This document shows, in pieces, positions 24,727 to 64,000 of a stretch of DNA of 64,000 bases (position 1 is its first letter; the number at the start of each line of letters is the position of its first letter). The translations under genes and the position numbers were made by a program. This DNA is from an uncultured Planctomycetota bacterium (lineage in GTDB: Bacteria; Planctomycetota; Planctomycetia; Gemmatales; Gemmataceae), in contig CAWATZ010000006.1 of assembly GCA_963784995.1 (NCBI GenBank), forward strand, positions 200,853-264,852, written 5' to 3'. The notes beneath the pieces were generated by a model. It made no database searches and was not told the DNA's origin. It saw nothing but the letters and a program-made list of their open reading frames with translations.

Positions 24727-24791
24727 GCGATTCTCCTCCCATCCTGGGTGACGGGCGCCCCTCTGGATTTTGGCGGCGACGGGTCGCAGTG

Positions 24792-24870: not shown

Positions 24871-25069
24871 GAACCTGCCAACATCGAGCAGCAACAGCCT
24901 ACCACGTTCTGGCGAGCCGGAGAAGAGCAGCTCGGCCGGCCCCGGCCGGGGTCGGGCCACGACGGAAGGGCCCGCCGGGACTTCGTCTTGCGTGCCTTGC
25001 CTTGACCGCCTACACTCTAGATCGGGTTAGACCCGCAGGGGTGGATCTGTCCTGCCGAGCTGGAGACGT

Positions 25070-26824: not shown

Positions 26825-26835
26825 CGTGCGAGGGC

Positions 26836-26919
26836 CCCCGGGTTGCGCTGCGCTCCACCCGGGGCTTTAGTCCCAACACCCGGAGTAAAGCCCCGGGTGG
26901 AGCGCAGCGCAACCCGGGG
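26836..26919. repeat. Family-B palindromic element: perfect 34-bp stem, 16-nt loop, between the XPB gene and the downstream ORF
   Basis: ccccgggttgcgctgcgctccacccggggcttta ... taaagccccgggtggagcgcagcgcaacccgggg. Shares gcgctgcgc and ggagtaa(a)gc motifs with family A. Confidence 0.8.
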
Positions 26920-26945
26920 TGCCCCCCGGGAACGGAGAGGCGTTG

Positions 26946-27221
26946 ATGTTGAACGATCCGATCCGCCGGACGCCCACGGGCCGGCTGCCCATCAAGCTGC
27001 ACCGCCGCGTGTGCCTGGTGCAGACCGAGGACGCCGTGCTGGCCGAGGAGTTGCTGGCGCGCAAGAAGCTCGCCCAGGACATCGCCGGCCGGCTCACGGA
27101 GCGCGTTTTGCTGATCCGCAGCGGGCGGGTCGAGGCCGTGGTGCAGGAATTGCAGAAGATGGGGCACACGCCCCAGGTCAGCACACGCACGCTCGATGAC
27201 AAGGTGATTCCAGGGAAATGA
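26946..27221 (+). CDS. Small hypothetical protein co-operonic with the XPB-like helicase
   Basis: ORF of 91 aa. Its stop overlaps the next start (ATGA). Confidence 0.35.
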   Translation: MLNDPIRRTPTGRLPIKLHRRVCLVQTEDAVLAEELLARKKLAQDIAGRLTERVLLIRSGRVEAVVQELQKMGHTPQVSTRTLDDKVIPGK

Positions 27222-37944: not shown

Positions 37945-38043
37945 CCCAGGGCTCACGCCCTGGTCTATTGACTGCCGCCCCTTCGGGGCTGATTCTTAGC
38001 CCCGAAGGGGCGGCAGTCAATAGACCAGGGCGTGAGCCCTGGG
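37945..38043. repeat. Family-C palindromic element: perfect 46-bp stem, 7-nt loop, in the divergent promoter region upstream of the ECF sigma gene
   Basis: cccagggctcacgccctggtctattgactgccgccccttcggggct gattctt agccccgaaggggcggcagtcaatagaccagggcgtgagccctggg. Partial copies at 2647-2692 and 22612-22645. Confidence 0.85.
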
Positions 38044-46184: not shown

Positions 46185-46596
46185 GGCCGCTCCCAGCCTC
46201 AGTGGACCAAGCCGCCTCCAGCATTCCCGGAAAAAATCCCGCAGCAACCATTGCCCTGCACGCCTCGCCCCTCTATCATATCTTCCTGACAATCTGGTGA
46301 GTATCTTATCCAGAGTGGCTGAGGGTACAGGCCCTGCGATGCCACAGCAACCGGCTTCCCCCAGGAAGTGCTGGTGCTACCTCCTGCCCGGGACTCCCGG
46401 GAGAGATAAGATCGTGTGCCTCACACGCCTCTTCTTCTCGATCAGACCCGCGCGATCGACCCCGATCACCGCGGTCTTCCTTCCTGGATGATACACACCT
46501 CCACAACAATGACCGCCAGGACCAGCGCGAGTGCCTCGGCCTGGCCGTGAATTGCTTAAGGGAGGGTCCTTCGTGTCGTCTTCTTTTGTCCGCGGA

Positions 46597-47826
46597 ATGA
46601 AGTGCCGGCTGTGCGGCAAGCTGTATCCGGTCGGTCCGATCCAGTTCTGCGAGGAGGATTTCGGCCCCCTCGAGGTCGATTACGATTACACCGCCATCGC
46701 CGAGGCCGTCAGCCGGGAAAAGATCGCCCATCGGCCCTGGAACATGTGGCGCTACGAGGAGCTGCTGCCCCTGGACCGGGAGCCGACCGTTGGCACGCAG
46801 GTCGGGGGCACGCCGTTGCTCAAGGCGGATCGGCTGGCCGCCGCCCTGGGCGTCGAGAAGCTCTGGCTCAAGAACGACGCCGTCAACTTCCCCACGCTGT
46901 CGTTCAAGGACCGCGTCGTGGCCGTAGCCCTGAGCAAGGCCAAGGAAATGGGCTTCACCACCGTCGGCTGCGCCTCCACCGGCAACCTGGCCAACAGCGT
47001 CGCCGCCAACGCCGCCGCGGCGGGTCTGAGCAGTTACATCTTCGTGCCGGCCGATCTGGAGCGCTCCAAGATCCTCAATACCAGCGTCTACGGAGCCCAT
47101 CTGATCGGCGTCCGCGGCACCTATGACGAGGTCAACCGGCTCTGCACCCAGGTGGCCTTCAAGTTCGGCTGGGCGTTCGTCAACATCAACCTCCGGCCGT
47201 TCTACGCCGAGGGGTCCAAGTCGATGGGCTTCGAGATCGCCGAGCAGCTGGGCTGGCGCACCCCACAGCACGTCGTCTGCCCGATGGCCGGCGGCAGCCT
47301 GATCGGCAAGATCCACAAGGCGTTTCACGAGCTGCACAAGGTCGGCCTGCTGGAGCAGGAGCCCCGCTGCAAGATGTACGGGGCTCAGGCTAGCGGGTGT
47401 AGTCCGATCAGCACGGCGGTCAAGAACGGCTGGGACTCCCATCGCCCGGTGCGCAAGCCCTGCACCATCGCCAAGTCGCTGGCCATCGGCGACCCGGCCG
47501 ACGGCTACTTCGCTGCCCGGGTCATCCGCGAGACCGGCGGCTGGTCCGAGGACGTCTCCGATCAGGAGATCGCCCAGGCGATGGTCCTGCTCGGCCAAAC
47601 CGAGGGCGTCTTCGCCGAGACGGCCGGCGGCGTCACCGTGGCCGTGGCCCGCAAGCTGATCGAGCAGGGGCGGATTCCGCGCGACGAGGAGATCGTCCTG
47701 TGCATCACCGGCAACGGCCTCAAGACGCAGGACGCCGTGGTGGACTACCTGGAAAAGCCCGCGGTCATCGGGCCGACCCTGGAGGAGTTCGAGCCGCTGG
47801 TGGCCGGGGAAGCGGTGTTGGTGTAA
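46597..47826 (+). CDS. thrC: Threonine synthase (variant with an N-terminal Zn-ribbon)
   Basis: CRLCGK...C zinc ribbon, PLP-lysine motif (PTLSFKDRVVAV) and ThrC conservation. The start could be GTG 46573. Confidence 0.8.
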   Translation: MKCRLCGKLYPVGPIQFCEEDFGPLEVDYDYTAIAEAVSREKIAHRPWNMWRYEELLPLDREPTVGTQVGGTPLLKADRLAAALGVEKLWLKNDAVNFPTLSFKDRVVAVALSKAKEMGFTTVGCASTGNLANSVAANAAAAGLSSYIFVPADLERSKILNTSVYGAHLIGVRGTYDEVNRLCTQVAFKFGWAFVNINLRPFYAEGSKSMGFEIAEQLGWRTPQHVVCPMAGGSLIGKIHKAFHELHKVGLLEQEPRCKMYGAQASGCSPISTAVKNGWDSHRPVRKPCTIAKSLAIGDPADGYFAARVIRETGGWSEDVSDQEIAQAMVLLGQTEGVFAETAGGVTVAVARKLIEQGRIPRDEEIVLCITGNGLKTQDAVVDYLEKPAVIGPTLEEFEPLVAGEAVLV

Positions 47827-47839
47827 ACTGCGTTCGTCC

Positions 47840-47915
47840 GAGCCGCGCACGCAGCGCAGCGGAGTAAGCGGCCCGCAGGAAGACCGCTTACTCCGCTGCG
47901 CTGCGTGCGCGGCTC
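47840..47915. repeat. Family-A palindromic element, copy 2: perfect 32-bp stem, 12-nt loop, between thrC and the MoaD-like gene
   Basis: gagccgcgcacgcagcgcagcggagtaagcgg cccgcaggaaga ccgcttactccgctgcgctgcgtgcgcggctc. Confidence 0.85.
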
Positions 47916-47946
47916 AGAAAGAAAATCGTCCTTCGGAGGATAAGAT

Positions 47947-48219
47947 ATGTCCGTGAAGGTTCAGATTCCCACCCCGATGCGGCAGCACACCGAGGGCAAG
48001 ACCACCGTCGAGGCCCAGGGCAGCACGGTCCAGGCGGTGCTCGCCGACCTGGGAGCGAAGTATCCCGCCCTCACCGGCCGGCTGTTCGACAACGGCCAGC
48101 TGCGCCGGTTCATCAACCTGTTCCTCAACAACGAGGACATCCGTTACCTGTCCAACCTGGAAACGCCCGTCAAGGACGGCGACGAGCTGGCCATCATTCC
48201 CGCGGTCGCTGGAGGTTGA
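47947..48219 (+). CDS. MoaD/ThiS-family sulfur-carrier protein ending in Gly-Gly
   Basis: 90 aa, beta-grasp-like, C-terminal ...IIPAVAGG-stop. Confidence 0.7.
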   Translation: MSVKVQIPTPMRQHTEGKTTVEAQGSTVQAVLADLGAKYPALTGRLFDNGQLRRFINLFLNNEDIRYLSNLETPVKDGDELAIIPAVAGG

Positions 48220-48220
48220 C

Positions 48221-48571
48221 ATGGCGGACGAGGACGACGCCGGCCTGCCGGCGCCGGATGCCCAGGTGCCGGAAGGGGCGGCGGTCTTTCCCGAGATCCC
48301 CGAGGAGCTGGGCGTCGATCCCCTGTTCCTGGCCATGCTGCATGCCACCGTCTTCCTGGCCGGCTCGACCGAGGAGGTCGTCAACGGCGAGGCCGCCGAC
48401 GAGGCGGTGCAGGCGATGGCCGGGTATCTGCGGCGGCTGACGGGGAAGGAGCTGGCCCGGGTGCGCGAGGACCTGGAGTGTCTGGTGGGTTACGCCCGGC
48501 AATGCGAGTGGCCACGGGAGATGGTGCGCTTCCTCAAGAGCTTCCTGGCCGACTACGGCATCAGCCGTTAG
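48221..48571 (+). CDS. Hypothetical acidic protein (not JAMM-like)
   Basis: ORF begins 1 nt after the MoaD-like stop. No HxH or other metalloprotease motif. Confidence 0.4.
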   Translation: MADEDDAGLPAPDAQVPEGAAVFPEIPEELGVDPLFLAMLHATVFLAGSTEEVVNGEAADEAVQAMAGYLRRLTGKELARVREDLECLVGYARQCEWPREMVRFLKSFLADYGISR

Positions 48572-48658
48572 CCCGACGCGCCAGCGAGGGAGAGGACAAA
48601 ACCCTCGCTGGCGCGTCGGGCTAACGGCCGACTACGGCATCAGCACGGGAGAGACGAA

Positions 48659-49699
48659 ATGACGCGGGATGGGTCGCTGGAACGCTACAGCCGGCAGATG
48701 CGCTTTCACGGCATCGGCGAGGAGGGCCAGCGCCGCCTGGAGCGCGCCCGGGTCACCCTCTGTGGCTGTGGGGCCCTCGGCACCGTCCTGGCCAACGCTC
48801 TCGTCCGGGCCGGCGTCGGGCATCTGCGGCTGATCGACCGCGACTTCATTGAGATGAGCAACCTCCAGCGGCAGGTGCTTTTCGACGAGCATGACGTGGC
48901 CGAGAACCTGCCCAAGGCCGAGGCCGCTGCTCGCAAGCTCGCCGCCATCAACTCCAGCGTCCACGTCGAGCCGGTCGTCACCGACATCGATCGGACCAAC
49001 ATCCTGGAGCTGTGCTCCGACGCCGACCTGATCCTCGATGGGACGGACAATTTCGAGATCCGCTATCTGATCAACGACGTGGCGGTCAAGCTGAACAAGC
49101 CCTGGGTCTACGGTGGCTGCATCGGCAGCCACGGTCAGACCATGACCATCCTGCCCGGCCAGACGCCGTGCCTGCGCTGCGTCTTCGAGGCAGCCCCCGC
49201 CCCGGGCGAAACCGGCACCTGCGAGACGGCCGGCGTGCTGGGGCCGATCGTCAACGTGATCGCCAGCTACCAGGCAGCCGAGGCGATGAAGGTCCTGACG
49301 GGGCACCTGGAACAGGTCAACCGGGAGCTGCTGTACTTCGACCTGTGGGAGAACACATTCCGCCGGATCAAGATTGCCCCGCTGCTTGGCAAGGTCGATT
49401 GTCCCTGCTGCGGTCAGCGCCGCTTCGAGTGGCTGGAGGGAGCGTTCGGCTCGCAGACCACCAGCCTGTGCGGCCGCAATGCGGTGCAGGTGTCACAGCG
49501 GTCGGCGAGCAAGCTCAATTTCGAGGGACTGGCCCGAGACCTGGAACAGCTGGGCACGGTCAGCTACAACCGCTTCCTGCTCAAGTTCAACGCAGAAGGG
49601 TTCGAGTTCACCGTCTTCCCGGATGGCCGAGCGATCATCAAAGGCACCTCTGACGAGGACAGGGCCCGGTCGCTCTACGCGCGGTACATCGGACATTAG
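48659..49699 (+). CDS. ThiF/MoeB-family E1-like adenylyltransferase with a C-terminal extension
   Basis: YSRQ...GCGALG nucleotide-binding motif, CxxC...CPCC zinc motif, and about 100 extra C-terminal residues. Confidence 0.75.
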   Translation: MTRDGSLERYSRQMRFHGIGEEGQRRLERARVTLCGCGALGTVLANALVRAGVGHLRLIDRDFIEMSNLQRQVLFDEHDVAENLPKAEAAARKLAAINSSVHVEPVVTDIDRTNILELCSDADLILDGTDNFEIRYLINDVAVKLNKPWVYGGCIGSHGQTMTILPGQTPCLRCVFEAAPAPGETGTCETAGVLGPIVNVIASYQAAEAMKVLTGHLEQVNRELLYFDLWENTFRRIKIAPLLGKVDCPCCGQRRFEWLEGAFGSQTTSLCGRNAVQVSQRSASKLNFEGLARDLEQLGTVSYNRFLLKFNAEGFEFTVFPDGRAIIKGTSDEDRARSLYARYIGH

Positions 49700-51032: not shown

Positions 51033-52154
51033 ATGAAGACACGCTCACGCGACGCCAAGCCAACGGCCGCCTCAACCGGCGTCACCGCAACCCCTCCCGC
51101 CGCGCACCAGGGCCAGACCCTCCCCGGTCCTGGTCGAGCCGTACCACCGCTGCACCGCGGCCGCTGGTGGCTGGCTGCCTTCGTCTTGCTGCTGGTTACG
51201 GTCGGCGTCGGTGCCTTTGCCCTGCTGAAGGAAGCGTCTCCCGAGGGGATGGTCTGGGTTCCCGGCGGAGACTTCGTGATGGGCGACGAACGCTTTGAGG
51301 ATGCCGGGCCGCTGCACAAGGTCCACGTCGATGGCTTCTGGATGGACAAAACCGAGGTCACCAACGCCCAGTTCGCCCGCTTCGTCGAGGCCACCGGCTA
51401 CAAGACCATCGCCGAACAGCAGCCCACCGAGCAGCAATATCCAGGTGCCAAGAAGGAGAACCTGGTTCCTGGCTCCATCGTCTTCGCGCCGCCCAGGGAC
51501 TGCAATCTCAAGGAGTGCAAGGCGTGCGGCGAGTGTCGCTGGTGGATCTACAAACCCGGCGCCAGCTGGAAGCATCCCGAAGGGCCCGACACCGACCTCA
51601 AGGGCAAGGAGAATCACCCGGTGGTCCACATTGCTTACGTGGACGCCGTGGCTTACGCCAAATGGACCGGCAAGCGGCTGCCGACCGAGGCCGAGTGGGA
51701 GTTCGCGGCCCGCGGCGGTCTGGAGGGCAAACCCTATTACTGGGGCGACAAGCTGAAACCGGACGGCAAGTGGATGGCCAACATCTTCCAGGGCGACTTC
51801 CCCAACAAGAACACCGCCGAGGACGGCTACCGCACCACGGCCCCCGTGGGCTCGTTCCCGGCCAACGCCTATGGCCTGCACGACATGTCCGGCAACGTCT
51901 GGGAGTGGTGCAGCGACTGGTATCGGCCCGATTACTATGCCACCTGCCTCGCAGAGAAAATCCGCGACAATCCGCAAGGGCCGCGTGACAGCGTCGATCC
52001 AAACCGGCGCGGGGAACCCAAGCGCGTGCTGCGCGGCGGCTCGTTCGAGTGCAGCGACCAGTATTGCAACCGCTACCTGGCCGGGGCTCGGCACCACGGC
52101 TCACCGGATACGGGCGCGATGCACAACGGCTTCCGCTGCGTCAAGTCAAAATGA
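51033..52154 (+). CDS. Formylglycine-generating enzyme family protein (SUMF1-like), membrane-anchored
   Basis: N-terminal TM anchor. Motifs GNVWEWCSDWY and RGGSF. Confidence 0.8.
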   Translation: MKTRSRDAKPTAASTGVTATPPAAHQGQTLPGPGRAVPPLHRGRWWLAAFVLLLVTVGVGAFALLKEASPEGMVWVPGGDFVMGDERFEDAGPLHKVHVDGFWMDKTEVTNAQFARFVEATGYKTIAEQQPTEQQYPGAKKENLVPGSIVFAPPRDCNLKECKACGECRWWIYKPGASWKHPEGPDTDLKGKENHPVVHIAYVDAVAYAKWTGKRLPTEAEWEFAARGGLEGKPYYWGDKLKPDGKWMANIFQGDFPNKNTAEDGYRTTAPVGSFPANAYGLHDMSGNVWEWCSDWYRPDYYATCLAEKIRDNPQGPRDSVDPNRRGEPKRVLRGGSFECSDQYCNRYLAGARHHGSPDTGAMHNGFRCVKSK

Positions 52155-52155
52155 A

Positions 52156-52266
52156 CCACAGAGGACACAGAGGACACAGAGAAAACCATCCCATGCGCGA
52201 CTCCAGGCTTCCTTTTTTCCTCTCCCTCGTCTTCCTATCTTCTCTGTGTCCTCTGTGCCTCTGTGG
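52156..52266. promoter_or_regulatory. 27/28-bp inverted repeat bracketing the RBS, start codon and signal-peptide codons of the downstream dehydrogenase gene
   Basis: ccacagaggacacagaggacacagagaa (52156-52183) versus ttctctgtgtcctctgtgcctctgtgg (52240-52266), 1 mismatch. The right arm encodes SLCPLCLCG. Confidence 0.55.
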
Positions 52267-55154
52267 TGAATCCTCTGGCCTGCGGCTGCCGGAGGGGTTC
52301 GAGGTGGTCGAGTGGGCCGACAGCAGCCTGGCCAACGACATTTACTGCCTCACCGTCGGCCCGTCCGGGCAGGTGGTCGTCTCGGGGCGCGGCTACGTCC
52401 GGCAGCTGGTCGATGAGAAAGGGGCCGGCAAGGCGACCCGGGCCCTGGACTTTGCCGAGGCACCGCGTGACGGGGCGATGGGCCTGTGCTGGGACGGCGA
52501 CGACCTGTACTGCATGGGCGACGGTGGTTTGCGGCGGTATCGCCAGGCCGGCGGCGCGGGACGCACCAGACCGTCCGAGCTGCTGTATCCGTTCAAAACC
52601 GGCGGCGAACACAGCGCCCACGCCATCCTCCGCGGCCCGGACGGCTGGTTGTACGTCATCGGCGGCGACGGCACGGGCATCTCACGGAAGGAAGCGAGCC
52701 TGCCGACCTCGCCGATCAAGGAACCCATCGGCGGTGGCGTGGTTCGCTTCACCCCGGACTTTCGCGGCAGCGAGATCGTCGCCGACGGCTTCCGCAACGC
52801 CTACGGCATGGACTTCAACCCCGACGGCGAGCTGTTCACTTTCGACAGTGACAACGAACGCTGTGTCTCGCTGCCGTGGTACGAGCAGTGCCGCTTCTAC
52901 CACGTTGCTGCGGGGAGCCATCATGGCTGGCAGGCCCATCAGCACGCCCAGACCTGGCGGCAGCCGCCGTATTTCCTCGACGTCACTCCGCCCGTGGCCC
53001 ACTTGGAGCGCGGCTCGCCGACCGGTGTGGTCTGCTATCGGCATACACAGTTCCCGCCGCATTACCGGGGCGGCTTGTTCCTGCTCGACTGGACTTTTGG
53101 CCGGGTGTGGTTCCTGAAGCTGGAACGAGCCGGCAGTTCCTACACCGCTCAGCGTGAAGTGTTCCTGCAAGCCACCGGTGAGGACGGCTTCGCCCCCACG
53201 GCGGCTGCCGTCGATCCGCGCAACGGCGATCTGTACCTGAGCATCGGCGGCCGGGGCACTCGCGGTGCCGTGTATCGGATTCGCTATCCGCAAGGGGCAA
53301 AGTCGATCACGGCTGAGGGCGTGGCCCGGCTCCAGCCCGCACGGCGCATCCTGGACTGGAAGCCGGACCTGGCGGCCGTCACGGATCGAGAAGGCGACCG
53401 CCGGCAATCCAGGCGAGCGGCTGGAAGCACTGCAATGGCTGCTGCGCCACCGTGAACGGCTGGAGGCGAGCCAGGCGGAGCAGGCGGTCGAGACCAACCT
53501 GAAGCAAACCGACCGCTTGCTGCGTCAGGCAACCGCGCGGCTGCTGGCGAGCATGCCTCCGGAAAAGCAGCAGCAACTGAGCCTCCGAGCGAAGAAGCCC
53601 GAGGCACGGCTGACGGTGGGCCTGGCCCAGCACGGCGCCGTCCTGCTGGACCTGATCGCGGATTCGCGTCTTGCCCCACGGCTCCGCCTGGACGCCGTGC
53701 GCCTGCTCCAGTTGCATCTGGGCGACATTGGTGACAAGTCATCCAAGGGCACACTCTGGGAGGGCTACAGCCGGCGGCAGCCGAAGCCCGAGAGCAGCCC
53801 GGCGATGTGCCAGGCCCTGCGCGACAGCTTCCCTTCGGGACATGCCGATCTGGACCGCGAATTGCTCCGGACACTGGCTCTGCTCCAGGACGACAACCCG
53901 GACCTGCCGCCACACTTGACCGCCCGCTTGACCGAGGCGTCCCATCCAACTGACGATTTCCACGTCCTGACCGTGCTGGCCCGGCTGCGCGGCGGCTTTT
54001 CCGACGCGGTGGTCCGGCAGACCGCCCATGCTCTGCTGCGGCTCGACGCCAAGGTGATGGCTCGCAAGATGAACCGCGAACGCAACTGGGACGATCGCCT
54101 GCGGGAGCTGGTCGCGGCCCTGGTCCGCAAGGAGCCGAAGCTGCCACTCGCCCTGCTGGACGACAACGAGTTCGGCCGGGCCGACCACGTCTGTTTCGTG
54201 GAATCGCTCCGGACCGGACGCGACCGGGCGGCCGAGAAGTTCCTGGCGACGGCCCAGCGCGAGCCGAACTTTGCCTGGAATGCCGGCCTGATTGGACTGG
54301 TGGGTGAGTTGCCCGAGGAGCGCTCCTTGCCAATCCTGCGGAAGCTCTGGGGCCAGGCCGGGCAGGACGAGGCGATCCTGGAAGTGCTGGCGCGGAAGCC
54401 CCGTCTCGCCGACCGGGACCGGTTTGTCGAGAGCCTGAAGTCGGGCCGGATGCAAACGATCGCCGCCGCCGTGCAATCGCTGGCGTCGCTAAAGGTCAAG
54501 CTGACGCGGGACGAGGTGCTGGCCCTGGTGCTGGCCCTGCGCGGCCTGCCGCCAGGCAAGGAGGGCGAGCCGATCCGCAAGCACGTTCTGCCGCTGCTCA
54601 AGGCGCAGACGGACCAGGGCCTGCCCGACGCCGATGCCTGGAGCAAGTGGGTCGCCCGCACCTGGCCCGACTTTGCCCCACGGGTCCGCAACCTCGACGG
54701 CGTCGATGAAGGGGCCTGGGAGCGGCGGCTGGCGGGCATCGACTGGAGCCAGGGAACCAGCGAGGCCGGTCGGCAGGTGTTCGTCCGGGCGCAGTGCAGC
54801 AGCTGTCACTCGGGGTCTCAGGCCCTCGGCCCGGACCTCAAGGGCGTGTCCGGCCGCTTCTCGCGGGCCGACCTGTTCACCGCCATCCTCCAGCCGAGCA
54901 AGGAGGTGCCGCCGCGCTACCGCACCACGCTGCTGACCACCACCGCGGGCAAGACCTACCAGGGGATGATCGTCTACGAGGCGCTCGACAGCCTGATCCT
55001 GCAAACGGGGCCGCTAACCACGGTGCGCGTGACCGAGACGCAGATCAGCGAACGCCAGCCAAGTACGCGGTCGCTGATGCCGGCAGGCCTGCTCGACCGG
55101 CTCAGCGACCGGGAGATTGCCGATCTGTATGCGTATTTGAAGGGGTTGAAGTGA
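52193..55154 (+). CDS. PVC-type membrane-bound dehydrogenase-domain / HEAT / cytochrome c (CxxCH) protein, paralog 2; apparent frameshift near 53385-53400
   Basis: Same architecture as 14903-18064. C-terminal CSSCHSG heme motif. The frame switches from 2 to 3 between ORF 52049-53455 and ORF 53265-55154. Confidence 0.65.
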
Positions 55155-55212: not shown

Positions 55213-55297
55213 AGCAAATCGGCCGGCTTGGCAAACCTCTGCCGGAGTGATACGATCATCCTGAACCAACCCTCTCATCCCGGCAAGGAGTGCCGCC

Positions 55298-57800
55298 ATG
55301 CGAATCGTGTCGTGGGTCGTGTCTGCCATTCTTCTCGGTGTTGTGGCGACTGCTGCGCCAGGTCAGCCCGGGATACCTCTGCTCCCAAACCCAAAGTTCG
55401 TGCCGGCGCCTGAGGCCCCTCGCGCCTCTATCTTGGGCGCTCACGCTGCCGTGAACCCTGCCCCGGTCGTCACGGACGAACAGAAGCTGCGGGGTGCTGG
55501 CCTGCGCGTCGATGGCCCGTCCCTGGTGGAGTTCTTTCGGCAACGTGCTTCGCAGGCCACGGACCCCGAAGAGATTAACCCCTGGATCAAGCGCCTGGTG
55601 GATGAGGATGTCGCGGTCCGCTCCCGGGCGGCACGAGTGTTACTGGGCCGCGGCGCTGCCGCGTTGCCTCTGCTGCGGCGGGCGGCCAACGACCTGGGCA
55701 ACCCCGAACTGGCAAGCCAGGCCCAGCGCTGCCTGCGGTTGATCGAAGGAGAAGGCACAACGGTTGTGCCGGCCGCTGCCGTACGCCTGCTGGTCCAGCG
55801 CAAGCCAGCCGGGGCCGTGGAAGCGCTGCTGGACTACCTGCCGGCGGCGGAGACTCCCGCCCTTATCGAGGAAGTGGCCAGCGCCTTGACCGCTCTGGCG
55901 TATCCCAACGACAAGCCGCACTCCGCCTTGCTCGAAGCGCTGACCGACGCCGTGCCGCTGCGTCGTGCGGTGGCCGGCAGCGTCCTGGCCGGCAAGGACC
56001 ACCCCCAGGCACGGCCGTACGTCCGCAAGCTGCTGCGTGATCCCAGGCCGCTGGTGCGGCTGCGTATCGGGCTGGCCCTGGCTGAAGCCAACGACCTGGA
56101 CGGAGTGCCCGTGCTCATCGAGTTGCTGGCCGAGGCGCCTGCCCCGCAGCACAAGCCCATCGAGGAGCTGCTGCGTCGTCTGGCAGGCGAATGGGCGCCG
56201 ACCACGCCACAAGGCGACGATGAGGTTGCCCGCCGCATTCGTCGTGGCGCCTGGGCCAGCTGGTGGCGCGAGAGCGACGGCCCGGCTCTGCTGGCCCAGC
56301 TGCGGCGGCATACGCTCAGCACCAAGGACCAGGCCAGGGTCCAGGCGCTCGATCGAGAAGCTGGGAGACGACGACTTTGAGGTGCGGCAGAACGCCTCGG
56401 GCGAACTGACCGAGTTTGGTGCGCTGGCCGTGCCGCTGCTGCGTGAAGCCAGCCACAGCACGGACGCGGAACGGGCCCGCCGAGCCGAGGAGTGTCTCAA
56501 GGACATTGCCGACAAGGGTGGCAAACCTCTGCCGGAACCTGTCTTGCGGCTGCTGAGCGTGCGCAAGCCAGCCGGGGCCGTGGAGGCGATCCTCGACTAT
56601 CTGCCCTTTGCCGACACTGAGCAGAGGAGAGAAGAGGCACGGACGGCCCTGGCGGTCCTGGCGGTGCGTGAGGGTCGGTTGGAGCCGGCGTTGCTGCGGG
56701 CGCTGGAAGATCCGCTGCCGCTGCGGCGGCTGACCGCCGCGGAGGCCATCCTGGCGGCGAGCCCCCTGGAGCAGCGGGACGCCGTGCGCAAGCTGCTGCG
56801 TGACAGCGACCCGCTGGTGCGGCTGCGTACCGCCGTGGCCCTGGCCGTCAAGCGTGATCGGGAAGCGATCCCGGTGCTGATCGAGTCGCTAGCCGAGGAA
56901 CCCTCCGACGCCAGCGGCGATGCGGAGGAAATCCTGTACCGCCTGGCCGGAGAAAATGGACCGAAGACGTTGCCGGTCAGCGGCACCGCCGACCGCCGCC
57001 AGCGCCGCGATGCCTGGGCGGCTTGGTGGAAGGCGTCCGGTTCGTCGGTCGATCTGGCCGTGCTTGAGAACCACACGCGCTTGCTGGGGTATACACTTCT
57101 GATAAGTTCGGCGGCCGGTCGGGTGCTAGAACTGGGCCGGGACGGCAAGCCGCGCTGGGTCATTGCCGGGCTGGCGAATCCGTTGGATGCCGTCATTCTG
57201 TCCGGTGACCGCGTGCTGATCGCGGAATACACCGGCAAGCGTGTGACCGAACGCGATTTCCAGGGCAAGATCCTCTGGCAAAAGGACGGGCTGGGAGCCG
57301 ATCCGGTCAACGTGCAGCGTCTGGCCAACGGCAACACCTTTATCGCCACGGAGAAGGAGTTGCTTGAGGTCGATCGCGCCGGCAAGACGGTCTGGAGCCA
57401 GTCTTTTCCGAACCTCATGGCAGCGTCCAGATCTCGGGATGGCAGCATCACGTGCCTGGACCAGGCTGGCCAGTGTGTTCGGCTCTCCTCTGACGGCAAG
57501 GAACTGAAGCGGTTTCCTTCCGGAGACAAGGCAGTTTATCACGGCTGCCTCGAAGTGACGGCCAACGGCCGGATCTTGATCGCGCAGCACAATGAGAACA
57601 GGGTAATAGAAATGGACGCCGAAGGCAGAGTTCTCTGGCAAGCCGCGGCACCGAAAATTGCCAGAGCCACGCCTATGCCCAACGGGCACGTACTGGTCGC
57701 CAGCTGCGACAATCAGCTGGTGACCGAACTGGATCGAGCCGGAAAGGTCGTTTGGGAATACAAGACCGGCATGCCGGTCTCGCGAGCCCGGCGGCGCTGA
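55298..57800 (+). CDS. Secreted HEAT-repeat + beta-propeller protein, tandem paralog A; single-base frameshift (extra g at about 56351)
   Basis: Collinear with intact paralog B. The frame breaks at ...QARVQAL|IEKLGDDDFEVRQNASG. Confidence 0.6.
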
Positions 57801-57872
57801 CCTGTCCGCTCCCTATGATGGGGATTCCGACCACCCTTGGGCACTCGCCCCATTCAGGCCAGGAGAGCCTCC

Positions 57873-60359
57873 ATGCGCAACGTAGTGCGGCTGGTGTTCG
57901 CCCTCGTTCTTTTCTGCGTGGCTTCCACGGCGTTTGGCCGGCAGCCGGGCGATCTTCCCAGAGCCCGAGTCGTTCCCGTGGGGCCTTCGTCAGCGGCCCC
58001 GGCTGCTGGGGATTCCGGCTCTCCCGCCCAGGACGAAGAGAGACTCCGGACCGCGGGGCTGCGCGTCGATGGGCCGTCCCTGGTGGAGTTCTTGCGGCAG
58101 CGGGCTCAACTGGAGACCGACCCCGACGGGCTCAACGCCTGGATCAGGCGGCTGAATGACGCTGATCCGGGAGTCCGCTCGCGTGCCGCGCGCACCTTGC
58201 TGGGTCGCGGCAAGGCGGCGCTGCCCCTGCTGCATCGCGCGGCCAACGATCTGGGCGACCCCGAACTGGCTGGCCGGGCGCAGCACTGTATCGAGGTCAT
58301 CGAATGGCAAGGTAGCACCTTGCCGGCCGCGGCCGCACGGCTGCTGGCCCATCACAAACCGGCCGGGGCGGTGGAAGCGCTGCTGGCCTATCTGCCCGCC
58401 GCCGAGACTCCTGCCCTCGTCGAGGAAGTGGCCAGCGCCCTCACGGCCCTGGCTTATCCGGACGACAAACCGCACGCCGCTTTGCTCGCAGCGCTCACCG
58501 ACGCCGTGCCGCTGCGTCGCGCCGTGGCCGGCAGCGCACTGGCCGGCAAGGATCATCCCCAAGCACGACCAGCCGTTCGCAAGCTGCTGCGTGATCCCAG
58601 GCCGCTGGTCCGTCTCCGTGTCGCGCTGGCCCTGGCCGAGGCCAACGACCTCGAAGGCGTGCCCGTTCTGATTGATCTGCTGGCAGAGGTTGTGCCGCCG
58701 CGGGACAAGCCCATCGAGGAACTGCTGCGGCGGCTGGCGGGCGAATGGGCGCCGACGCCGCCGGCCGGAGACGATGCGGTCGCCCGGCGGATTCGCCGGG
58801 ACAGCTGGGCCGTCTGGTGGCGCGACAGCGATGGCCCCGCCCTGCTGGCCGAAGTGCGCAGCCACACCCTGAGCGGCAAGGACCAGGCCCGGGTGCTGGA
58901 CCTGATCGACAAACTGGGCGCCGACGACTTCGAGATGCGGCAGAATGCTTCCGGCGCGTTGACCGAGTTCGGGGCCCGGGCCGTGCCGCTGCTGCGGGAA
59001 GCCACGCACAGTCCCGATGCGGAACGGGCACGGCGGGCCGAAACGTGTCTGCAGGAGATTGCCGACAAGGGCGGCAAACCCTTGCCGGAACCCGTGTTGC
59101 GGCTGCTGAGGGTGCGCAAACCGGCCGGCGCGGTGGAGGCGTTGCTGGCTTATCTGCCCTTTGCCGACAACGAGCAACGAAGTGAGGAGGTGCGCCAGAC
59201 GCTGGCGTCCCTGGCGGTGCGTGAGGGCCAGCTGGAACCAGCCTTGTCGCGGGCGCTGGAAGATCCACTGCCGCTGCGGCGGCTGGCCGCTGCCGAGGCC
59301 ATCCTGGCAGCGGGAGCCCTGGAGCAACGGGACGCCGTGCGCAAACTGCTGCGTGACGGTGATCCGCTGGTGCGGCTGCGGACCGCCCTGGCCCTGGCCG
59401 TCAAGCGTGATCGGGAAGCGATCCCGGTGCTGATCGAGTCGCTGGCCGAGGAACCCTCCGACGCCAGCAGCGAAGCGGAGGAAATCCTGTATCGCCTGGC
59501 CGGCGAGGGCGGGCCGAAGGTCGAGCCGGCCGGCGACACAGCCGGTCGGCATCAGCGCCGTGACGCCTGGGCGGCCTGGTGGAAGGCGTCCGGTTCGTCG
59601 GTCGATCTGGCCGTGCTGGAGAACCACGTGCGCCAACTGGGGTACACGCTCCTGGCAATGGGGGAAAGTGAAAAGGATGGTCAGGTGCTGGAACTGGGCC
59701 GGGACGGCAAGCCGCGCTGGATCATTACCGGGCTGGCGGCTCCAGTAGACGCCTACGTCCTTCCCGGCGATCGCGTGCTGATCGCGGAATACCTCCTCAA
59801 GCGTGTGACCGAACGCGATTTCAAGGGCAACATCCTCTGGCAGCGAAACCTGGGCACCCATCCGGTCAACGCGCAGCGTCTGGCCAATGGCAACACCTTC
59901 ATCGCCACGGACAACGAGTTGCTCGAGGTCGATCGCGCCGGCAAGACCGTCTGGAGTCAGGCTTTCTCGAACCTTCCGGCGGCGTACAAATCCCGGGATG
60001 GCAGCATCACTTGCCTGGACGGCAGTGGCCAGTGTGTTCGCCTCTCCTCGGCCGGCAAGGAACTGAAGCGGTTTCCTTCTGGAACCTCCGAAGTGAGCGT
60101 CGGTGGCATCGACGTGCTGGCCAATGGCCGGATCTTGATCGCGCAGCGCAAGGAGAACCGGGTAGTGGAACTGGACGCCGAAGGCAAAGTCCTCTGGCAA
60201 ACCGCCGCGCCGGGAAGTTTCTCGGCCACACGCCTGCCCAACGGGCATACGCTCGTTGCCAGCACCGACAACAAGATAGTGACCGAACTGGACCGGGCCG
60301 GAAAGGTCGTCTGGGAACACAAGGCGGGGATGGAGGTCTTCCGAGCGCGACGGCGCTGA
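57873..60359 (+). CDS. Secreted HEAT-repeat + beta-propeller protein, tandem paralog B (intact)
   Basis: Signal peptide. Two internally duplicated HEAT modules (PAGAVEALLAYLP..., DPLVRLR.ALALA...). C-terminal 4-6-blade propeller (ANGNTFIAT..., DGSITCLD...). Confidence 0.75.
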   Translation: MRNVVRLVFALVLFCVASTAFGRQPGDLPRARVVPVGPSSAAPAAGDSGSPAQDEERLRTAGLRVDGPSLVEFLRQRAQLETDPDGLNAWIRRLNDADPGVRSRAARTLLGRGKAALPLLHRAANDLGDPELAGRAQHCIEVIEWQGSTLPAAAARLLAHHKPAGAVEALLAYLPAAETPALVEEVASALTALAYPDDKPHAALLAALTDAVPLRRAVAGSALAGKDHPQARPAVRKLLRDPRPLVRLRVALALAEANDLEGVPVLIDLLAEVVPPRDKPIEELLRRLAGEWAPTPPAGDDAVARRIRRDSWAVWWRDSDGPALLAEVRSHTLSGKDQARVLDLIDKLGADDFEMRQNASGALTEFGARAVPLLREATHSPDAERARRAETCLQEIADKGGKPLPEPVLRLLRVRKPAGAVEALLAYLPFADNEQRSEEVRQTLASLAVREGQLEPALSRALEDPLPLRRLAAAEAILAAGALEQRDAVRKLLRDGDPLVRLRTALALAVKRDREAIPVLIESLAEEPSDASSEAEEILYRLAGEGGPKVEPAGDTAGRHQRRDAWAAWWKASGSSVDLAVLENHVRQLGYTLLAMGESEKDGQVLELGRDGKPRWIITGLAAPVDAYVLPGDRVLIAEYLLKRVTERDFKGNILWQRNLGTHPVNAQRLANGNTFIATDNELLEVDRAGKTVWSQAFSNLPAAYKSRDGSITCLDGSGQCVRLSSAGKELKRFPSGTSEVSVGGIDVLANGRILIAQRKENRVVELDAEGKVLWQTAAPGSFSATRLPNGHTLVASTDNKIVTELDRAGKVVWEHKAGMEVFRARRR

Positions 60360-60437
60360 CCGGCCTGTCCGCTCCCCCGGCAGCGGGGATTCCGACCACC
60401 CTTGGGAACTCGCCCCCTTCAGGCCAGGAGAGCCTCC

Positions 60438-62924
60438 ATGCGCAGCGTATCGCGGTTGACGTTCGCCCTCGTTCTTTTCTGCGTGGCTTCCGCGGCGTTT
60501 GGCCGGCAGCCGGGCGATCTTCCCAAAGGCCGAGTCGTTCCCCTGGGGCCTTCGTCAGCGGCCCCGTCTGCCGGGGATTCCGGCTCTCCCGCCCAGGACG
60601 AAGAGAGACTCCGGACCGCGGGGCTGCGCGTCGATGGGCCGTCCCTGGTGGAGTTCTTGCGGCAGCGGGCTCAACTGGAGACCGACCCCGACGGGCTCAA
60701 CGCCTGGATCAGGCGGCTGAATGACGCTGATCCGGGAGTCCGCTCGCGTGCCGCGCGCACCTTGCTGGGTCGCGGCAAGGCGGCGCTGCCCCTGCTGCAT
60801 CGCGCGGCCAACGATCTGGGCGACCCCGAACTGGCTGGCCGGGCGCAGCACTGTATCGAGGTCATCGAATGGCGAGGCAGCGCCGTTGCCGGCCGCGGCC
60901 GCACGGCTGCTGGCCCATCACAAGCCTGCCGGGGCGGTGGAAGCGCTGCTGGCCTACCTGCCCGCCGCCGAGACTCCTGCCCTCGTGGAGGAAGTGGCCC
61001 GCGCCCTCACGGCCCTGGCTTATCCGGACGACAAACCGCACGCCGCCTTGCTCGCCGCGTTGACCGACGCCTTGCCGCTGCGTCGCGCCGTGGCCGGCAG
61101 CGCCCTGGCCGGCAAGGATCATCCCCAGGCACGACCAGCCGTTCGCAAGCTGCTGCGCGATCCCAGGCCGCTGGTGCGTCTGCGTGTCGCCCTGGCCCTG
61201 GCCGAGGCCAATGACCTCGAAGGGGTGCCCGTTCTGATTGATCTGCTGACTGAGGTTGCGCCGCCGCGGGACAAGCCCATCGAGGACCTGCTGCGGCGGC
61301 TGGCGGGCGAATGGACGCCGACGCCGCCGGCCGGAGACGATGCGGTCGCCCGGCGGATTCGCCGCGACAGCTGGGCCGTCTGGTGGCGCGACAGCGATGG
61401 CCCCGCCCTGCTGGCCGAAGTGCGCAGCCACACCCTGAGCGGCAAGGACCAGGCCCGGGTGCTGGACCTGATCGACAAACTGGGCGCCGACGACTTCGAG
61501 ATGCGGCAGAATGCTTCCGGCGCGTTGACCGAGTTCGGGGCCCGGGCCGTGCCGCTGCTGCGTCAAGCCAGGCACAGTCCCGATGCGGAACGGGCAAAGC
61601 GTGCGGAAGAGTGTCTGAAGGATATTGCCGACAGGGGCAGCAAACCCTTGCCGGAACCCGTGTTGCGGCTGCTGAGGGTGCGCAAGCCTGCCGGGGCCGT
61701 GGAGGCGTTGCTGGATTATCTGCCTTTTGCCGACAACGAGCAACGAAAAGATGAGGCTCGCAAGGCGCTGGTGGCTCTGGCGGTGCGTGAAGGCCGGCTG
61801 GACCCCGCCTTGTCGCGGGTGCTGGAAGATCCGCTGCCGCTGCGGCGGCTGGCCGCTGCCGAGGCCATCCTGGCAGCGAGTCCCCTGGAGCAGCGGGATG
61901 CCGTGCGCAAGCTGCTGCGGGACGCTGATCCGCTGGTGCGGCTGCGTACCGCCGTGGCCCTGGCCGTCAAGCGTGATCGGGAAGCGATCCCGGTGCTGAT
62001 CGAGTCGCTGGCCGAGGAACCCTCCGACGCCAGCGGCGAAGCGGAGGAACTCCTGTCCCGTCTGGCCGGCGAGGGCGCGCCGAAGGTCGAGCCGACCGGG
62101 GGCACGGCCGGTCGCCGCCAGCGCCGTGACGCCTGGGCCGGCCTGGTGGAAGGAGTCCGGTTCGTCGGTCGATCTGGCCGTGCTGGAGAACCACACGCGC
62201 CTGCTGGGGTACACCCTCCTGGCAATGGGAGGAAAAGGATGGTCAGGTGCTGGAACTGGGCCGGGACGGCAAGCCGCGCTGGATCATTACCGGGCTGGCG
62301 ATTCCGGTAGACGCCCACGTCCTTCCCGGCAACCGTGTGCTGATTGCCGAGATCCAGGGCAAGCGTGTAACCGAACGCGATTTCCAGGGCAAGATCCTCT
62401 GGCAAAAGGAGAGGCTGGAAGCCAGGCCGGTCAACGCGCAGCGTCTGGCCAATGGCAACACCTTTATTGCCACGGAGGCCGGGTTGCTTGAGGTCGATCG
62501 AACCGGCAAGACCATCTGGAGTCAGGCTTTTCCGAACCTCATGGCAGCGTACAAATCCCGGGATGGCAGCATCACCTGCTTTGACAAAGCTGGCCAGTGT
62601 GTTCGCCTCTCCTCGGCCGGCAAGGAGCTGAAGCGGTTTCCTTCGGGAAGCTCCGACTTGAGAGTTGGTGGCATTGACGTGACGGCCAATGGCCGGATCT
62701 TGATCGCGCAGCGCAAGGAGAACAGGGTGTCGGAACTGAACGCCGAAGGCAAAGTCCTTTGGCAAGCCGCCGCGCCGGGAATTTTCTCGGCCACACGCGT
62801 GCCCAACGGACATACGCTCGTTGCTGGCCGCGATACCAAGCTGGTGACCGAACTGGACCGGGCCGGAAAGGCCGTCTGGGAACACAAGGTGGAGAAGGAG
62901 GTCTTTCGGGCGCGGCGGCGCTGA
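60438..62924 (+). pseudogene. HEAT + beta-propeller tandem paralog C with at least 3 indels relative to B (+1 at about 60883, +1 at about 62137, -5 at about 62230)
   Basis: Spread over three frames (ORFs 60402-61214, 60721-62310, 62247-62924). Nucleotide alignment to B pinpoints the indels. Confidence 0.6.
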
Positions 62925-63002
62925 CCGGCCTGTCCGTTCCCCTTGGCGGGGGTTACGATCATCCTTGAGGAAACCCTTCCATACCTGACCAGGAGTGCTT
63001 CC

Positions 63003-64000
63003 ATGCGCAGCGTATCGTGGCTGGTGTTGGCGATCCTTCTTTTCCTGCGGGGCTGCCGCGGCGCTTGGCCGACAGCCGGGTGATCTTCCCAAAACCCGAG
63101 TCGTCTCTGTGGGATCCTCGCCCGCCCTGCCAGCCGGGGATTCCAGTTCCCCCAGCCAGGACGAAGAGAAACTCCGGACGGCGGGCCTGCGTGTCGATGG
63201 CCCGTCCCTGGTGGAGTTCTTTCGGCAACGGGCCCAACTGCAAGCCGACCCGGAAGAGCTCAACACCTGGATCAGGCGTCTGAATGACGCGGACCCGGAA
63301 GTCCGTTCTCGTGCCGCAGGCAAGTTGCTGGGCCGAGGCACGGCGGCCTTGCCCCTGCTGCGTCGCGCGGCCAACGACCTGGGCGACCCCGAACTGGCTG
63401 ACCGGGCCCGGCACTGCATCGAGCTGATCGACAGGCACGGCACGACGACCGTGACAACGGCCGCGGCCGTTCGCCTGCTGGTCCAGCAGAAACCGGCCGG
63501 GGCCGTGGAAGCGCTGCTGGCCTATCTTGCCGGCTGCCGAGACTCCCGCTCTTGTGGAGGAAGTGGCCCGGGCCCTGACCGCAATGGCTTATCCTGACGA
63601 GAAACCGCATGCCGCCTTGCTCGCAGCGCTCACGGATGCCTTACCGCTGCGCCGTGCCGTGGCCGGTTGGGCCCTGGCCGGCAAGGACCATCCCGAAGCC
63701 CGGCCGTACGTCCGCAAGCTGCTGCGCGATCCCAAACCGCTGGTGCGTCTCCGCGTCGCCCTGGCCCTGGCCGAGGCCAACGACCTCGAAGGAGTGCCCG
63801 TTCTGATTGATCTGCTCGCCGAAGTTCCACCTCCGCGGCACAAGGCCATCGAGGAGCTGCTGGGCCGGCTGGCGGGCGAATGGGCACCGACTGCACCACA
63901 AGGCGACGATGCGGTTGCCCGCCGGATTCGTCGTGGTGCCTGGGCCAGCTGGTGGCGCGAGAGCGACGGCCCGGCTCTGCTGGCCCAGGTACGTCGGCAC
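63003..64000 (+). CDS. HEAT + beta-propeller tandem paralog D (partial, runs off the window end); at least 2 single-base frameshifts (about 63045-63070 and about 63530)
   Basis: Collinear with B from MRSVSWLVLAILLF. Each break is a +1 insertion relative to B. Confidence 0.5.

Follow-up and report, generated by a model that had tools for sequence, protein, structure and literature searches.

A 64,000-nt stretch of a contig from an uncultured Gemmataceae bacterium (the whole stretch is called the window here) ends in a genuine tandem array of genes for exported paralogous proteins that combine HEAT repeats with a beta-propeller. The explanation that accounts best for the data, and which we hold with moderate confidence, is that the array is real, that its products are exported binding or scaffold proteins and that the frameshifts interrupting some of the copies are caused by errors in the sequence.

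A repeat search of the window revealed four in-register head-to-tail copies, A to D, with a period of ~2,560 nt (2553–2575 nt from start to start). Open reading frames and their translations agreed with the repeat search, and both reproduce the four paralogs delimited in a sequence-only reading of this DNA. The features of the array and of the region preceding it are as follows:

51033–52154, + strand: FGE-sulfatase family gene (context only)
52049–55154, + strand: gene of a PVC-type haem-binding CxxCH protein, interrupted near 53400 by a +1 frameshift (context only)
55228–55256, + strand: candidate sigma-70-like promoter, TTGGCA-17-TACGAT with TG, 5′ of copy A (consensus match only)
55298–57800, + strand: copy A, two overlapping ORFs (55298–56380 and 55965–57800), one extra base near 56346
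57801–57872, + strand: spacer A–B, 72 nt, AGGAG 7 nt 5′ of ATG
57873–60359, + strand: copy B, intact ORF of 828 aa, identical to public protein P0121
60360–60437, + strand: spacer B–C, 78 nt, with RBS, AGGAG 7 nt 5′ of ATG
60438–62924, + strand: copy C, three ORFs, one surplus base each at 60885 and 62138, plus a net +1 (mod 3) at ~62231
62925–63002, + strand: spacer C–D, 78 nt, with RBS, AGGAG 7 nt 5′ of ATG
63003–64000, + strand: copy D, incomplete at the window edge, one surplus base each at 63044 and 63525

The RBS-bearing spacers of 72–78 nt noticed earlier are thus present between all copies. About 60 nt just 5′ of copy A are homologous to them, and none of the inter-copy spacers contains a terminator-like site. 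Nucleotide identity is 92% for B/C, 82% for B/D and C/D and 76–79% for A versus the others, a wider range than the 85–90% first proposed. In the public record, the C-terminal ORF of copy A is P0037 and the middle ORF of copy C is P0034. The suspicion that the array reaches beyond the window was correct: the rest of copy D runs uninterrupted to its stop codon in public entry P0008 (636 aa), and P0003, P0005 and the truncated P0012 are further copies on the same contig, if not necessarily adjacent to these four. The contig (1,441,126 bp, 1.44 Mb) therefore carries at least seven copies, at least four of them within the window.

Frameshifts in copies A, C and D

Only copy B is intact. The indel count given by the sequence-only reading (one in A, three in C and two in the part of D within the window) was reproduced; its description of the broken copies as decaying was not. 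Consensus error is, in our judgement, likelier than real decay to have caused these lesions. Each of the six has the effect of a +1 insertion. Once a single base is taken out per site, the ORFs are complete and stop-free and the consensus motifs return, so that copy A minus one base encodes an 833-aa protein and copy C minus one base per site an 827-aa protein. Neither nonsense mutations nor larger deletions were found in A, C or D. Indels that arise naturally are of mixed kinds, with a bias towards deletions. Genes unrelated to the array are shifted too: at least four frameshifts affect genes of the window outside the array (~8320, ~18700, ~19000 and ~53400), and nine of ten frameshifts in the window are +1. 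The gene affected at ~53400 is the PVC-type haem-binding gene, whose halves are in different frames; an intact paralogue at 14903–18064 is the expected single ORF.

Selective constraint was compared between broken and intact copies. Polarised codon changes since the split of B and C number 32.5 non-synonymous and 27.5 synonymous in B, and 25 and 26, respectively, in C, whose three independent indels are accompanied by no non-synonymous excess over intact B. Singleton changes at otherwise invariant sites number 8 in A, 6 in C and 6 in D, compared with 8 in each of the intact P0003 and P0005, i.e. conserved residues are kept as well in the broken copies as in the intact ones. Thus, of the hallmarks of pseudogenes, A, C and D display a disrupted reading frame, but their constraint is not relaxed, they have no nonsense mutations and they have kept the conserved residues.

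Across the family, frameshifts follow Nanopore-only assemblies. Among 121 family copies scored by counting frames (an earlier count of disrupted copies was confounded by locus edges), multi-frame copies make up 9 of 29 in loci from Nanopore MFD (Microflora Danica) MAGs versus 2 of 92 in non-MFD loci (Fisher p=3e-5). The diadenylate cyclase (DAC) gene and the gene of a 587-aa protein, found beside the family in some genomes, are likewise split in MFD loci L003 and L001 and intact in non-MFD loci L002, L007, L009 and L027. MFD MAGs were produced from Nanopore reads only, by Flye assembly with one round of Medaka (PMC12313526), and indels in Nanopore consensus sequences lead to frameshifts, particularly below ~40x coverage (PMC9262707). 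The frameshifts in A, C and D would then be errors of a long-read consensus, probably built from Nanopore reads only, each inserting a single base. If they are, as seems most likely, all array copies are probably intact genes. Within this one family, the association is a caution against inferring gene decay from Nanopore-only MAGs.

A birth-and-death process, in which A, C, D and truncated P0012 were inactivated very recently while B, P0003 and P0005 stayed functional, is possible though clearly less probable. It derives its main strength from the density of frameshifts, which is ~9-fold higher in the array (six in 8.7 kb versus at least four in the remaining 55.3 kb; Poisson p 5e-5, or 2e-3 if the background was undercounted two-fold). 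None of the six sites is in a long homopolymer, and their association with homopolymers or with CCWGG, GATC, GGCC, CCGG and GCGC motifs is not above chance, so they are not of the classic Nanopore error type. Two of the six (60885 and ~62231) fall in loops whose length varies among paralogues, i.e. in natural indel hot spots. Copy C also has a modest excess of derived amino-acid changes over B (45 versus 27, p=0.04), and dN/dS for B/C is 0.5, compared to 0.24–0.30 for older pairs. Against real pseudogenes stand the uniform +1 character of the lesions, the lack of stops and larger deletions, the retained residues and the family-wide link to Nanopore-only assemblies, and consensus error remains the explanation that we prefer.

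Programmed frameshifting and phase variation were also considered and rejected: the copies do not share the positions of their lesions, and none of these positions is a simple-sequence repeat. A GC3 frame plot was useful outside the array and noisy inside it, as the first two positions of HEAT codons are rich in GC.

Architecture and probable function of the array proteins

The domain structure was analyzed on intact copy B, for which an AF2 model with a pLDDT of 91 was available:

57873–58031, + strand: signal peptide, aa 1–22, MRNVVRLVFALVLFCVASTAFG, then linker as far as aa ~53, hypervariable and disordered (AF2 model)
58032–58826, + strand: HEAT module 1, aa 54–318 (Pfam HEAT_2; all-helical model; alphaRep/HEAT matches in PDB)
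58827–59630, + strand: HEAT module 2, aa 319–586 (internal duplicate of module 1, ~42% aa identity)
59631–60356, + strand: six-bladed beta-propeller, aa 587–828 (24 strands; conserved RARRR tail at the end)

The signal peptide, of the Sec type, and the two internally duplicated HEAT modules, recognized already by the sequence-only reading, are borne out by the model and by profile searches. In the model, residues 2–19 form a helix and residues 19–47 have pLDDT below 50; across seven paralogues only 19% of signal peptide and linker positions are invariant. No lipobox could be read from the sequence of the copy B signal peptide. Residues 51–582 are all helical. Copy B belongs to PF13646 (HEAT_2), which it matches in three stretches at 89.5 bits, above the gathering threshold of 27.7. 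The internal duplication (aa 65–317 versus aa 319–586) is visible also in DNA as a 67-nt core repeat at 762-nt spacing, and each ~265-aa module is closed by a Trp-rich RRDAWAAWW helix. The HEAT repeats resemble those of the alphaRep/PBS-lyase type, with profile matches to alphaRep designs (E 1e-17 to 1e-48), to YibA and, weakly, to bilin lyases; they differ in lacking a lyase context and in being arranged as two modules.

The C-terminal domain had been described as a PQQ-like propeller. It is a propeller, and its repeats match PQQ_2 (PF13360; 49.2 bits, E 7e-13), which is a likeness to BamB-type and quinoprotein eight-bladed propellers at the level of repeat sequence. The eight-bladed PQQ type itself was not supported: the model contains 24 strands, i.e. 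six blades. A structure prediction, proposed earlier as a way to identify the propeller type, thus places the domain, at fold level, among six-bladed propellers of the YWTD/NHL type. A profile search of PDB matched the TRIM2 NHL domain (E 1.8e-13) in addition to alphaRep. The NHL repeat family PF01436 is missing from the Pfam matches of copy B and is carried by one homologue only, P0075.

The best structural matches of the propeller are non-catalytic receptor propellers of the YWTD and NHL classes (LRP4, LRP6, LDLR and nidogen; the NHL domains of TRIM2, TRIM71 and Brat; the sensor domain of M. tuberculosis PknD), with identity of only 10–17%. The array proteins lack the EGF, RING or kinase partners of these proteins; their propeller is instead fused to a pair of HEAT modules, which follow a bacterial signal peptide. 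Other assignments failed. A PQQ-dependent dehydrogenase or quinoprotein would have eight blades with a PQQ-binding site, while the array propeller has six. The BamB profile TIGR03300 gives 29.5 bits against a cut-off of 285.2, and the lipobox is absent. Membrane-coat-like (MC) proteins of PVC bacteria, including Gemmata, likewise combine a beta-propeller and an alpha-solenoid in one polypeptide, strictly with the propeller at the N-terminus and the solenoid at the C-terminus (Santarella-Mellwig et al. 2010, PMC2799638); in the AF2 model of copy B the order is reversed, and a signal peptide is present.

Variation among paralogues is concentrated on one face of the propeller. In the A–B and C–D loops 9 of 52 positions are invariant, versus 26 of 52 in the B–C and D–A loops (p=8e-4). 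Propeller dN/dS is also the higher one, at 0.42–0.52 compared to 0.20–0.28 for the HEAT modules (copy comparisons A–B, A–C, B–D and A–D). A binding or scaffold role, suggested earlier, is plausible given the receptor-type fold and the single variable face, and we infer that the array encodes binding or scaffold proteins located outside the cytoplasm, probably in the periplasm. In such proteins the HEAT solenoids would serve as a conserved docking platform, the propeller face formed by the A–B and C–D loops may carry paralogue-specific ligand or partner specificity, and the copies together would make up a set of related receptors or adaptors that differ in specificity.

It is unlikely that the proteins are instead enzymes, with a catalytic six-bladed propeller (arylsulfate-sulfotransferase-like, lactonase/SGL-like or PAL-like) and HEAT repeats as an accessory. 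An FGE gene adjoins the array in the window and might hint at sulfate-ester metabolism, and the propeller matches Pfam Arylsulfotran_2 (PF14269) at 28.2 bits, just above the cut-off of 27. However, this match to the class of ASST (3elq) and Cpz4 spans 34 residues only, and the ASST family PF05935 stays below its cut-off (20 versus 24.2 bits). At 242 aa the propeller is about half the size of ASST chains (452–563 aa). Its conserved residues recur blade after blade (NG..L[IV]A and E.D..GK.[VL]W) and so look like motifs of structure more than like a single active site, the closest folds are the non-catalytic ones named above, and synteny with FGE is absent in the 26 genome loci compared.

The chance is slimmer still that the array is a true birth-and-death receptor repertoire, in which a conserved double-HEAT scaffold presents a hypervariable propeller face, duplication and gene conversion generate its diversity and some cassettes are real pseudogenes, for capture or uptake of diverse macromolecules or for recognition of foreign cells or phages in Gemmataceae. 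Such a system, if it exists, would be the bacterial counterpart of variable receptor families.

Family distribution and evolution of the array

The array proteins are members of a large family that is as yet uncharacterised and has been named from Gemmataceae only, whose genes normally stand in tandem arrays. At an E-value of 1e-30 or lower, 1,342 clusters (50% identity) are reached; homologues match over 94–100% of the query with 45–76% aa identity and the same domain order. For 866 homologues the record names give no more than "HEAT repeat protein" or "Gemmataceae bacterium", and we found no paper on the family. In JGI metagenomes no orthologue above 50% identity was present, the best match being 49%. 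The Gemmataceae "HEAT repeat domain-containing protein" family (PF13646 with PF13360/PF14269) has the architecture of the array proteins, in forms with one or two HEAT modules, and shares their tandem organisation. With a confident structural model, habitual tandem arrays and one variable propeller face, the family is a defined experimental target, though its delineation resolves no long-standing question.

No conserved neighbour that would inform on function was found. Both members of the gene pair said to precede the array, FGE and the haem protein, are indeed there (the latter scoring 78 against 68.15 for the haem domain TIGR02603, and 96.4 against 122.2, i.e. below the cut-off, for the N-terminal domain TIGR02604), but the haem gene is the split one described above, and a functional link to the array is unsupported. 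In 26 genome loci (L001–L026) synteny with FGE, PVC-type haem protein or ThiF/ThrC genes is absent, save for a weak downstream PVC-type match in L024, and the array proteins have no specific sequence similarity to PVC-type proteins. A SurA/PpiC-like gene or a trio with DAC and the 587-aa protein precedes the family in subsets of genomes only; neither occurs in the window, and the present array differs from that subset in lacking the DAC/587-aa-protein neighbourhood.

Tandem arrays of two to six family copies were found in 32 of 68 related loci. Among 30 arrays compared, none is as homogeneous as the present one, with its mean propeller aa identity of 77% versus means of 40–72% in the others; all its copies are two-module forms, and its 72–78-nt spacers are very short. 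The proposal of a lineage-specific expansion holds in part. The homogeneity of the array and the recent B/C relationship agree with it; on the other hand, tandem arrays are usual across Gemmataceae, and most copies are 70–79% identical in aa sequence to each other, i.e. as diverged as from copies on other contigs.

B and C form a mosaic, being 98–100% identical over the first ~1,150 nt and 81–95% thereafter, and appear to have been recently duplicated or homogenised. The mosaic is a direct trace of gene conversion. The duplicated unit is the gene together with its ~75-nt 5′ leader with the RBS, and the array would evolve via unequal crossing-over and gene conversion. That the array or its copy number is an assembly artefact, caused by the mis-joining of strain variants or of reads from just one or two genes, is highly improbable: metagenome assemblers do struggle with repeats, and stretches of B and C are 99–100% identical, but the copies are clearly distinct (76–92% at the nucleotide level, with copy-specific linkers and loops), their spacing is regular and their junctions are clean, and the same organisation is found in dozens of independent assemblies, short-read ones included.

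Array structure and protein architecture

A repeat search bore out the tandem array at the 3' end of the window: four copies lie in register with start-to-start distances of 2,553-2,575 nt, and an ORF map with translations reproduced the coordinates of the sequence-only reading.

55298-57800, copy A
57873-60359, copy B, single intact ORF of 828 aa
60438-62924, copy C
63003 to the window end, copy D

Between the copies lie spacers of 72, 78 and 78 nt, each with AGGAG 7 nt 5' of the ATG. Since about 60 nt upstream of copy A is homologous to these spacers, the duplicated unit is the gene plus its leader. Terminator-like sites were found in none of the intergenic spacers of the array; one promoter-like match was located upstream of copy A. 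The proposed 85-90% nucleotide identity among copies was overstated: it is 92% for B/C, 82% for B/D and C/D and 76-79% for A versus the others.

Public proteins matching window ORFs exactly all came from one 1,441,126-bp NCBI/ENA contig, which encodes the following family members.

P0121, copy B (828/828)
P0037, C-terminal ORF of copy A
P0034, middle ORF of copy C
P0008 (636 aa), starts with the third-frame sequence of copy D and reaches the family C-terminus
P0003 (824 aa) and P0005 (823 aa), full-length copies
P0012 (560 aa), truncated copy

With copy D continued in P0008 and further copies on the same contig, the array does extend past the window, as had been suspected. Together, the window copies, P0003, P0005 and P0012 bring the genome to at least seven copies, all on one contig but not necessarily adjacent.

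The signal peptide, two internally duplicated HEAT modules and C-terminal propeller described earlier were recovered in the copy B sequence and model. Pfam searches of copy B returned HEAT_2 (89.5 bits, in three stretches), PQQ_2 (49.2 bits) and marginal arylsulfotransferase-repeat matches. Residues 65-317 and 319-586 align at ~42% identity, showing the HEAT part to be internally duplicated. A Trp-rich RRDAWAAWW motif closes both modules, with W312, W315, W316 and W569 invariant in 116 homologues. The signal peptide, MRNVVRLVFALVLFCVASTAFG followed by RQ, is without a lipobox, and from this sequence copy B is predicted to be exported by Sec. An AlphaFold2 model of copy B built from the 116 homologues (mean pLDDT 91.2) contains the following elements.

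Residues 2-19, N-terminal hydrophobic helix
Residues 19-47, disordered segment
Residues 51-582, all-helical region
Residues 592-826, 24 beta-strands forming six four-stranded blades

Having six blades in the model, the propeller is not of the PQQ quinoprotein or BamB-type eight-bladed kind, contrary to the earlier PQQ-like assignment; copy B scored 29.5 bits against BamB TIGR03300 (cut-off 285). The architecture shown by the model is that of an exported protein in which a conserved solenoid of two HEAT modules leads into a six-bladed propeller of the receptor type (YWTD/NHL). The membrane-coat-like architecture of Gemmata (PMC2799638) has the reverse order, whereas here the solenoid precedes the propeller. 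The extreme C-terminus, R-A-R-R-R (60342-60356 in copy B), is near-invariant in the 116 homologues at R824, R826 and R827 and invariant at R828.

Frameshifts in copies A, C and D

A MAFFT alignment of the four copies placed the frame-breaking indels as previously counted: one in A (near 56346), three in C (60885, 62138 and near 62231) and two in D (63044 and 63525). These copies had been taken to be decaying, and the evidence is mostly contrary. With one base removed at each of the six sites, copies A and C read through as full-length ORFs without stops (833 and 827 aa, respectively), and copy D stays open as far as the window reaches. Local family motifs such as RRDAWAAWWK and LLAYLPAAETPALVEEV reappear as well; all six lesions are therefore equivalent to +1 insertions. 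After this correction, neither nonsense mutations nor larger deletions were present in the array copies. The three +1 shifts of copy C add to +3 and return its propeller ORF (62247-62924) to the start-codon frame; one case in three would do so by chance, and this may be coincidental.

Neither dN/dS nor polarised codon changes nor singletons at invariant sites indicated that constraint is relaxed in A, C or D. For A-B, B-D and A-D, pairwise dN/dS was 0.24-0.30; the young pair, B-C, gave 0.5. Codon changes between B and C, polarised with A and D, numbered 32.5 non-synonymous and 27.5 synonymous in intact B versus 25 and 26 in C with its three frameshifts. At sites where all other paralogues agree, A has 8 singleton substitutions, C has 6 and D has 6, and intact P0003 and P0005 have 8 each. 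The time needed for three indels should also bring an excess of non-synonymous and nonsense changes, and its lack in copy C argues against decay.

Frames are also broken in window genes unrelated to the array; these are given here with an intact paralogue of the haem-binding gene upstream of it.

7268-8485 and 8100-9050, (+), ORF pair, by appearance one gene with a +1 switch near 8320; no Pfam match in either
14903-18064, (+), PVC-type haem paralogue (DUF7133, HEAT and cytochrome c), intact single ORF of 1,053 aa
18158-19465, (-), C45/AAT-like peptidase gene with TAT signal, frames 2, 1, 2, i.e. two frameshifts (-1 then +1)
52049-55154, (+), PVC-type haem gene (DUF7133, HEAT and cytochrome c), +1 frameshift near 53400

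Of the ten frameshifts counted across the window, nine are +1 (binomial p=0.02), which points to a single shared process. As a technology control, complete family copies with tblastn matches in more than one frame were counted in loci from Microflora Danica (MFD) MAGs and in all other loci. Such copies made up 9/29 in the former and 2/92 in the latter (odds ratio 20, Fisher p=3e-5); within the HEAT-propeller family, frameshifts thus follow the sequencing platform. A highly conserved diadenylate cyclase (DAC) gene and its neighbour encoding a 587-aa protein are split in MFD loci L003 and L001 and intact in non-MFD loci L002, L007, L009 and the 9.3-Mb contig L027. The MFD MAGs were assembled by Flye from Nanopore reads alone and polished in one round of Medaka (PMC12313526), and Nanopore consensus indels are a known cause of frameshifted gene calls, especially below ~40x coverage (PMC9262707). 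The 1.44-Mb contig and the background frameshifts suggest that the source here is likely a long-read MAG as well. We consider it fairly probable that the frameshifts in A, C and D are consensus errors, and the most striking claim, that of decaying copies, is probably technical.

That A, C and D are instead genuine, very recent pseudogenes is possible but rather doubtful. Frameshift density is ~9-fold higher in the array (6 in 8.7 kb versus at least 4 in the remaining 55.3 kb; Poisson p 5e-5, or 2e-3 if half of the background was missed), none of the six sites lies in a long homopolymer or is associated with CCWGG, GATC or other tested motifs, and copy C has a modest surplus of derived residues (45 versus 27, p=0.04). 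Against this stand the substitution pattern of copy C, the +1 character of all six lesions, the frameshifts in unrelated genes and the family-wide concentration of multi-frame copies in Nanopore-only loci. Under consensus error, the enrichment would be reconciled if reads that place ambiguously and copy numbers that vary between strains make polishing worse within a recently formed tandem repeat.

Family, array evolution and likely function

The array is a member of an existing, annotation-only protein family. A word-indexed search gave 866 homologues at E<=1e-10, and HMMER, run exhaustively against 1.84 billion representatives, gave 1,342 clusters at E<=1e-30. The only names that homologues bear are 'HEAT repeat protein' and 'HEAT repeat domain-containing protein [Gemmataceae bacterium]', and the literature library searched contained no papers on the HEAT-propeller family. 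The model provides a structural definition of a large family without described function, so far from Gemmataceae. Its members fall into length classes of ~800 aa (two HEAT modules) and ~550 aa (one HEAT module).

Tandem arrays of 2-6 copies were present in 32 of 68 related loci (26 GTDB-genome matches, 40 JGI metagenome matches and two further places), so tandem organisation is a property of the family and not peculiar to this genome. The order is often two-module, two-module, one-module, one-module; its recurrence in independent genomes indicates that the arrangement is ancient and conserved and that its members have differentiated. A pair of two-module copies and, after it, one or two one-module copies were seen in L010, L012, L014, L015, L022, L037, L038, L047 and L059. 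In L001, L002, L003, L007, L009, L027 and L028, family genes lie directly 3' of a conserved trio made up of the gene for a DacZ-type diadenylate cyclase, an ORF of ~116 aa (present in part of these loci only) and the gene for a ~587-aa secreted protein without Pfam match. No homologues of the trio were found in the 64-kb window.

The proposal of a lineage-specific expansion held in part. Homogeneity here is exceptional, with a mean propeller identity between copies of 77%, whereas the means of the 29 other arrays compared lie at 40-72%, and B and C are 98-100% identical over the first ~1,150 nt and 81-95% beyond; A/D identity climbs locally to 93%. Gene conversion within tandem arrays of paralogues is well known, and the B/C and A/D mosaic has the pattern expected of gene conversion or unequal crossing-over. 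However, arrays occur family-wide, and the remaining copies, 70-79% identical in protein, are no closer to each other than to copies on other contigs (P0001, P0002, P0004). Judged by these identities, the array is young in part only.

For A-B, A-C, B-D and A-D, dN/dS is 0.42-0.52 in the propeller and 0.20-0.28 in the HEAT modules, the propeller being the faster-evolving part. The B-C and D-A loops have 26/52 positions invariant among the seven paralogues of the genome, the A-B and C-D loops 9/52 (p=8e-4). Established propeller geometry puts the A-B and C-D loops of four-stranded antiparallel blades on the same side, so variability would be concentrated on one propeller face. We suggest that these are binding or scaffold proteins of the periplasm or cell surface, in which this face would set the specificity of each paralogue, with the HEAT modules docking onto a common partner. 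The array could then constitute a repertoire of specificities, its genes being transcribed together or each expressed from its own copy of the leader. An enzymatic, ASST- or lactonase-like role is less likely, since the conserved propeller residues form structural motifs that are repeated in each blade, and the closest structural matches of the propeller are non-catalytic. The adjacent FGE-sulfatase family and haem-protein genes are probably unrelated neighbours.

Other features of the window

A set of features at 46303-49699 resembles a sulfur amino-acid pathway that is under SAM control and depends on a sulfur-carrier protein.

46303-46412, SAM riboswitch RF00162 (81.5 bits)
46531-47826, ThrC-like PLP enzyme, downstream of the riboswitch
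47947-48219, ThiS-family sulfur carrier
48221-48571, 116-aa ORF, between the ThiS-family and ThiF/MoeB-type genes
48659-49699, ThiF/MoeB-type adenylyltransferase

Three matches to the Acido-Lenti-1 RNA motif RF01687 (~50 bits each, gathering score 37) occur in this apparent Gemmataceae genome.

2647-2692, (-), inside the DUF1549/DUF1553 ORF 1763-3154
37945-37990, (+), and 37998-38043, (-), an inverted pair within an intergenic gap

The stretch 21000-25000 has a GC content of 0.59 versus ~0.66 and may be foreign DNA; its ORFs 22168-23094 (-) and 23296-24960 (-) are without Pfam match. It is followed by an apparent gene pair.

25070-29455, (+), XPB/RAD25-like helicase (ERCC3_RAD25_C, ResIII, Helicase_C_3), then a 745-aa Helicase_C_3 protein
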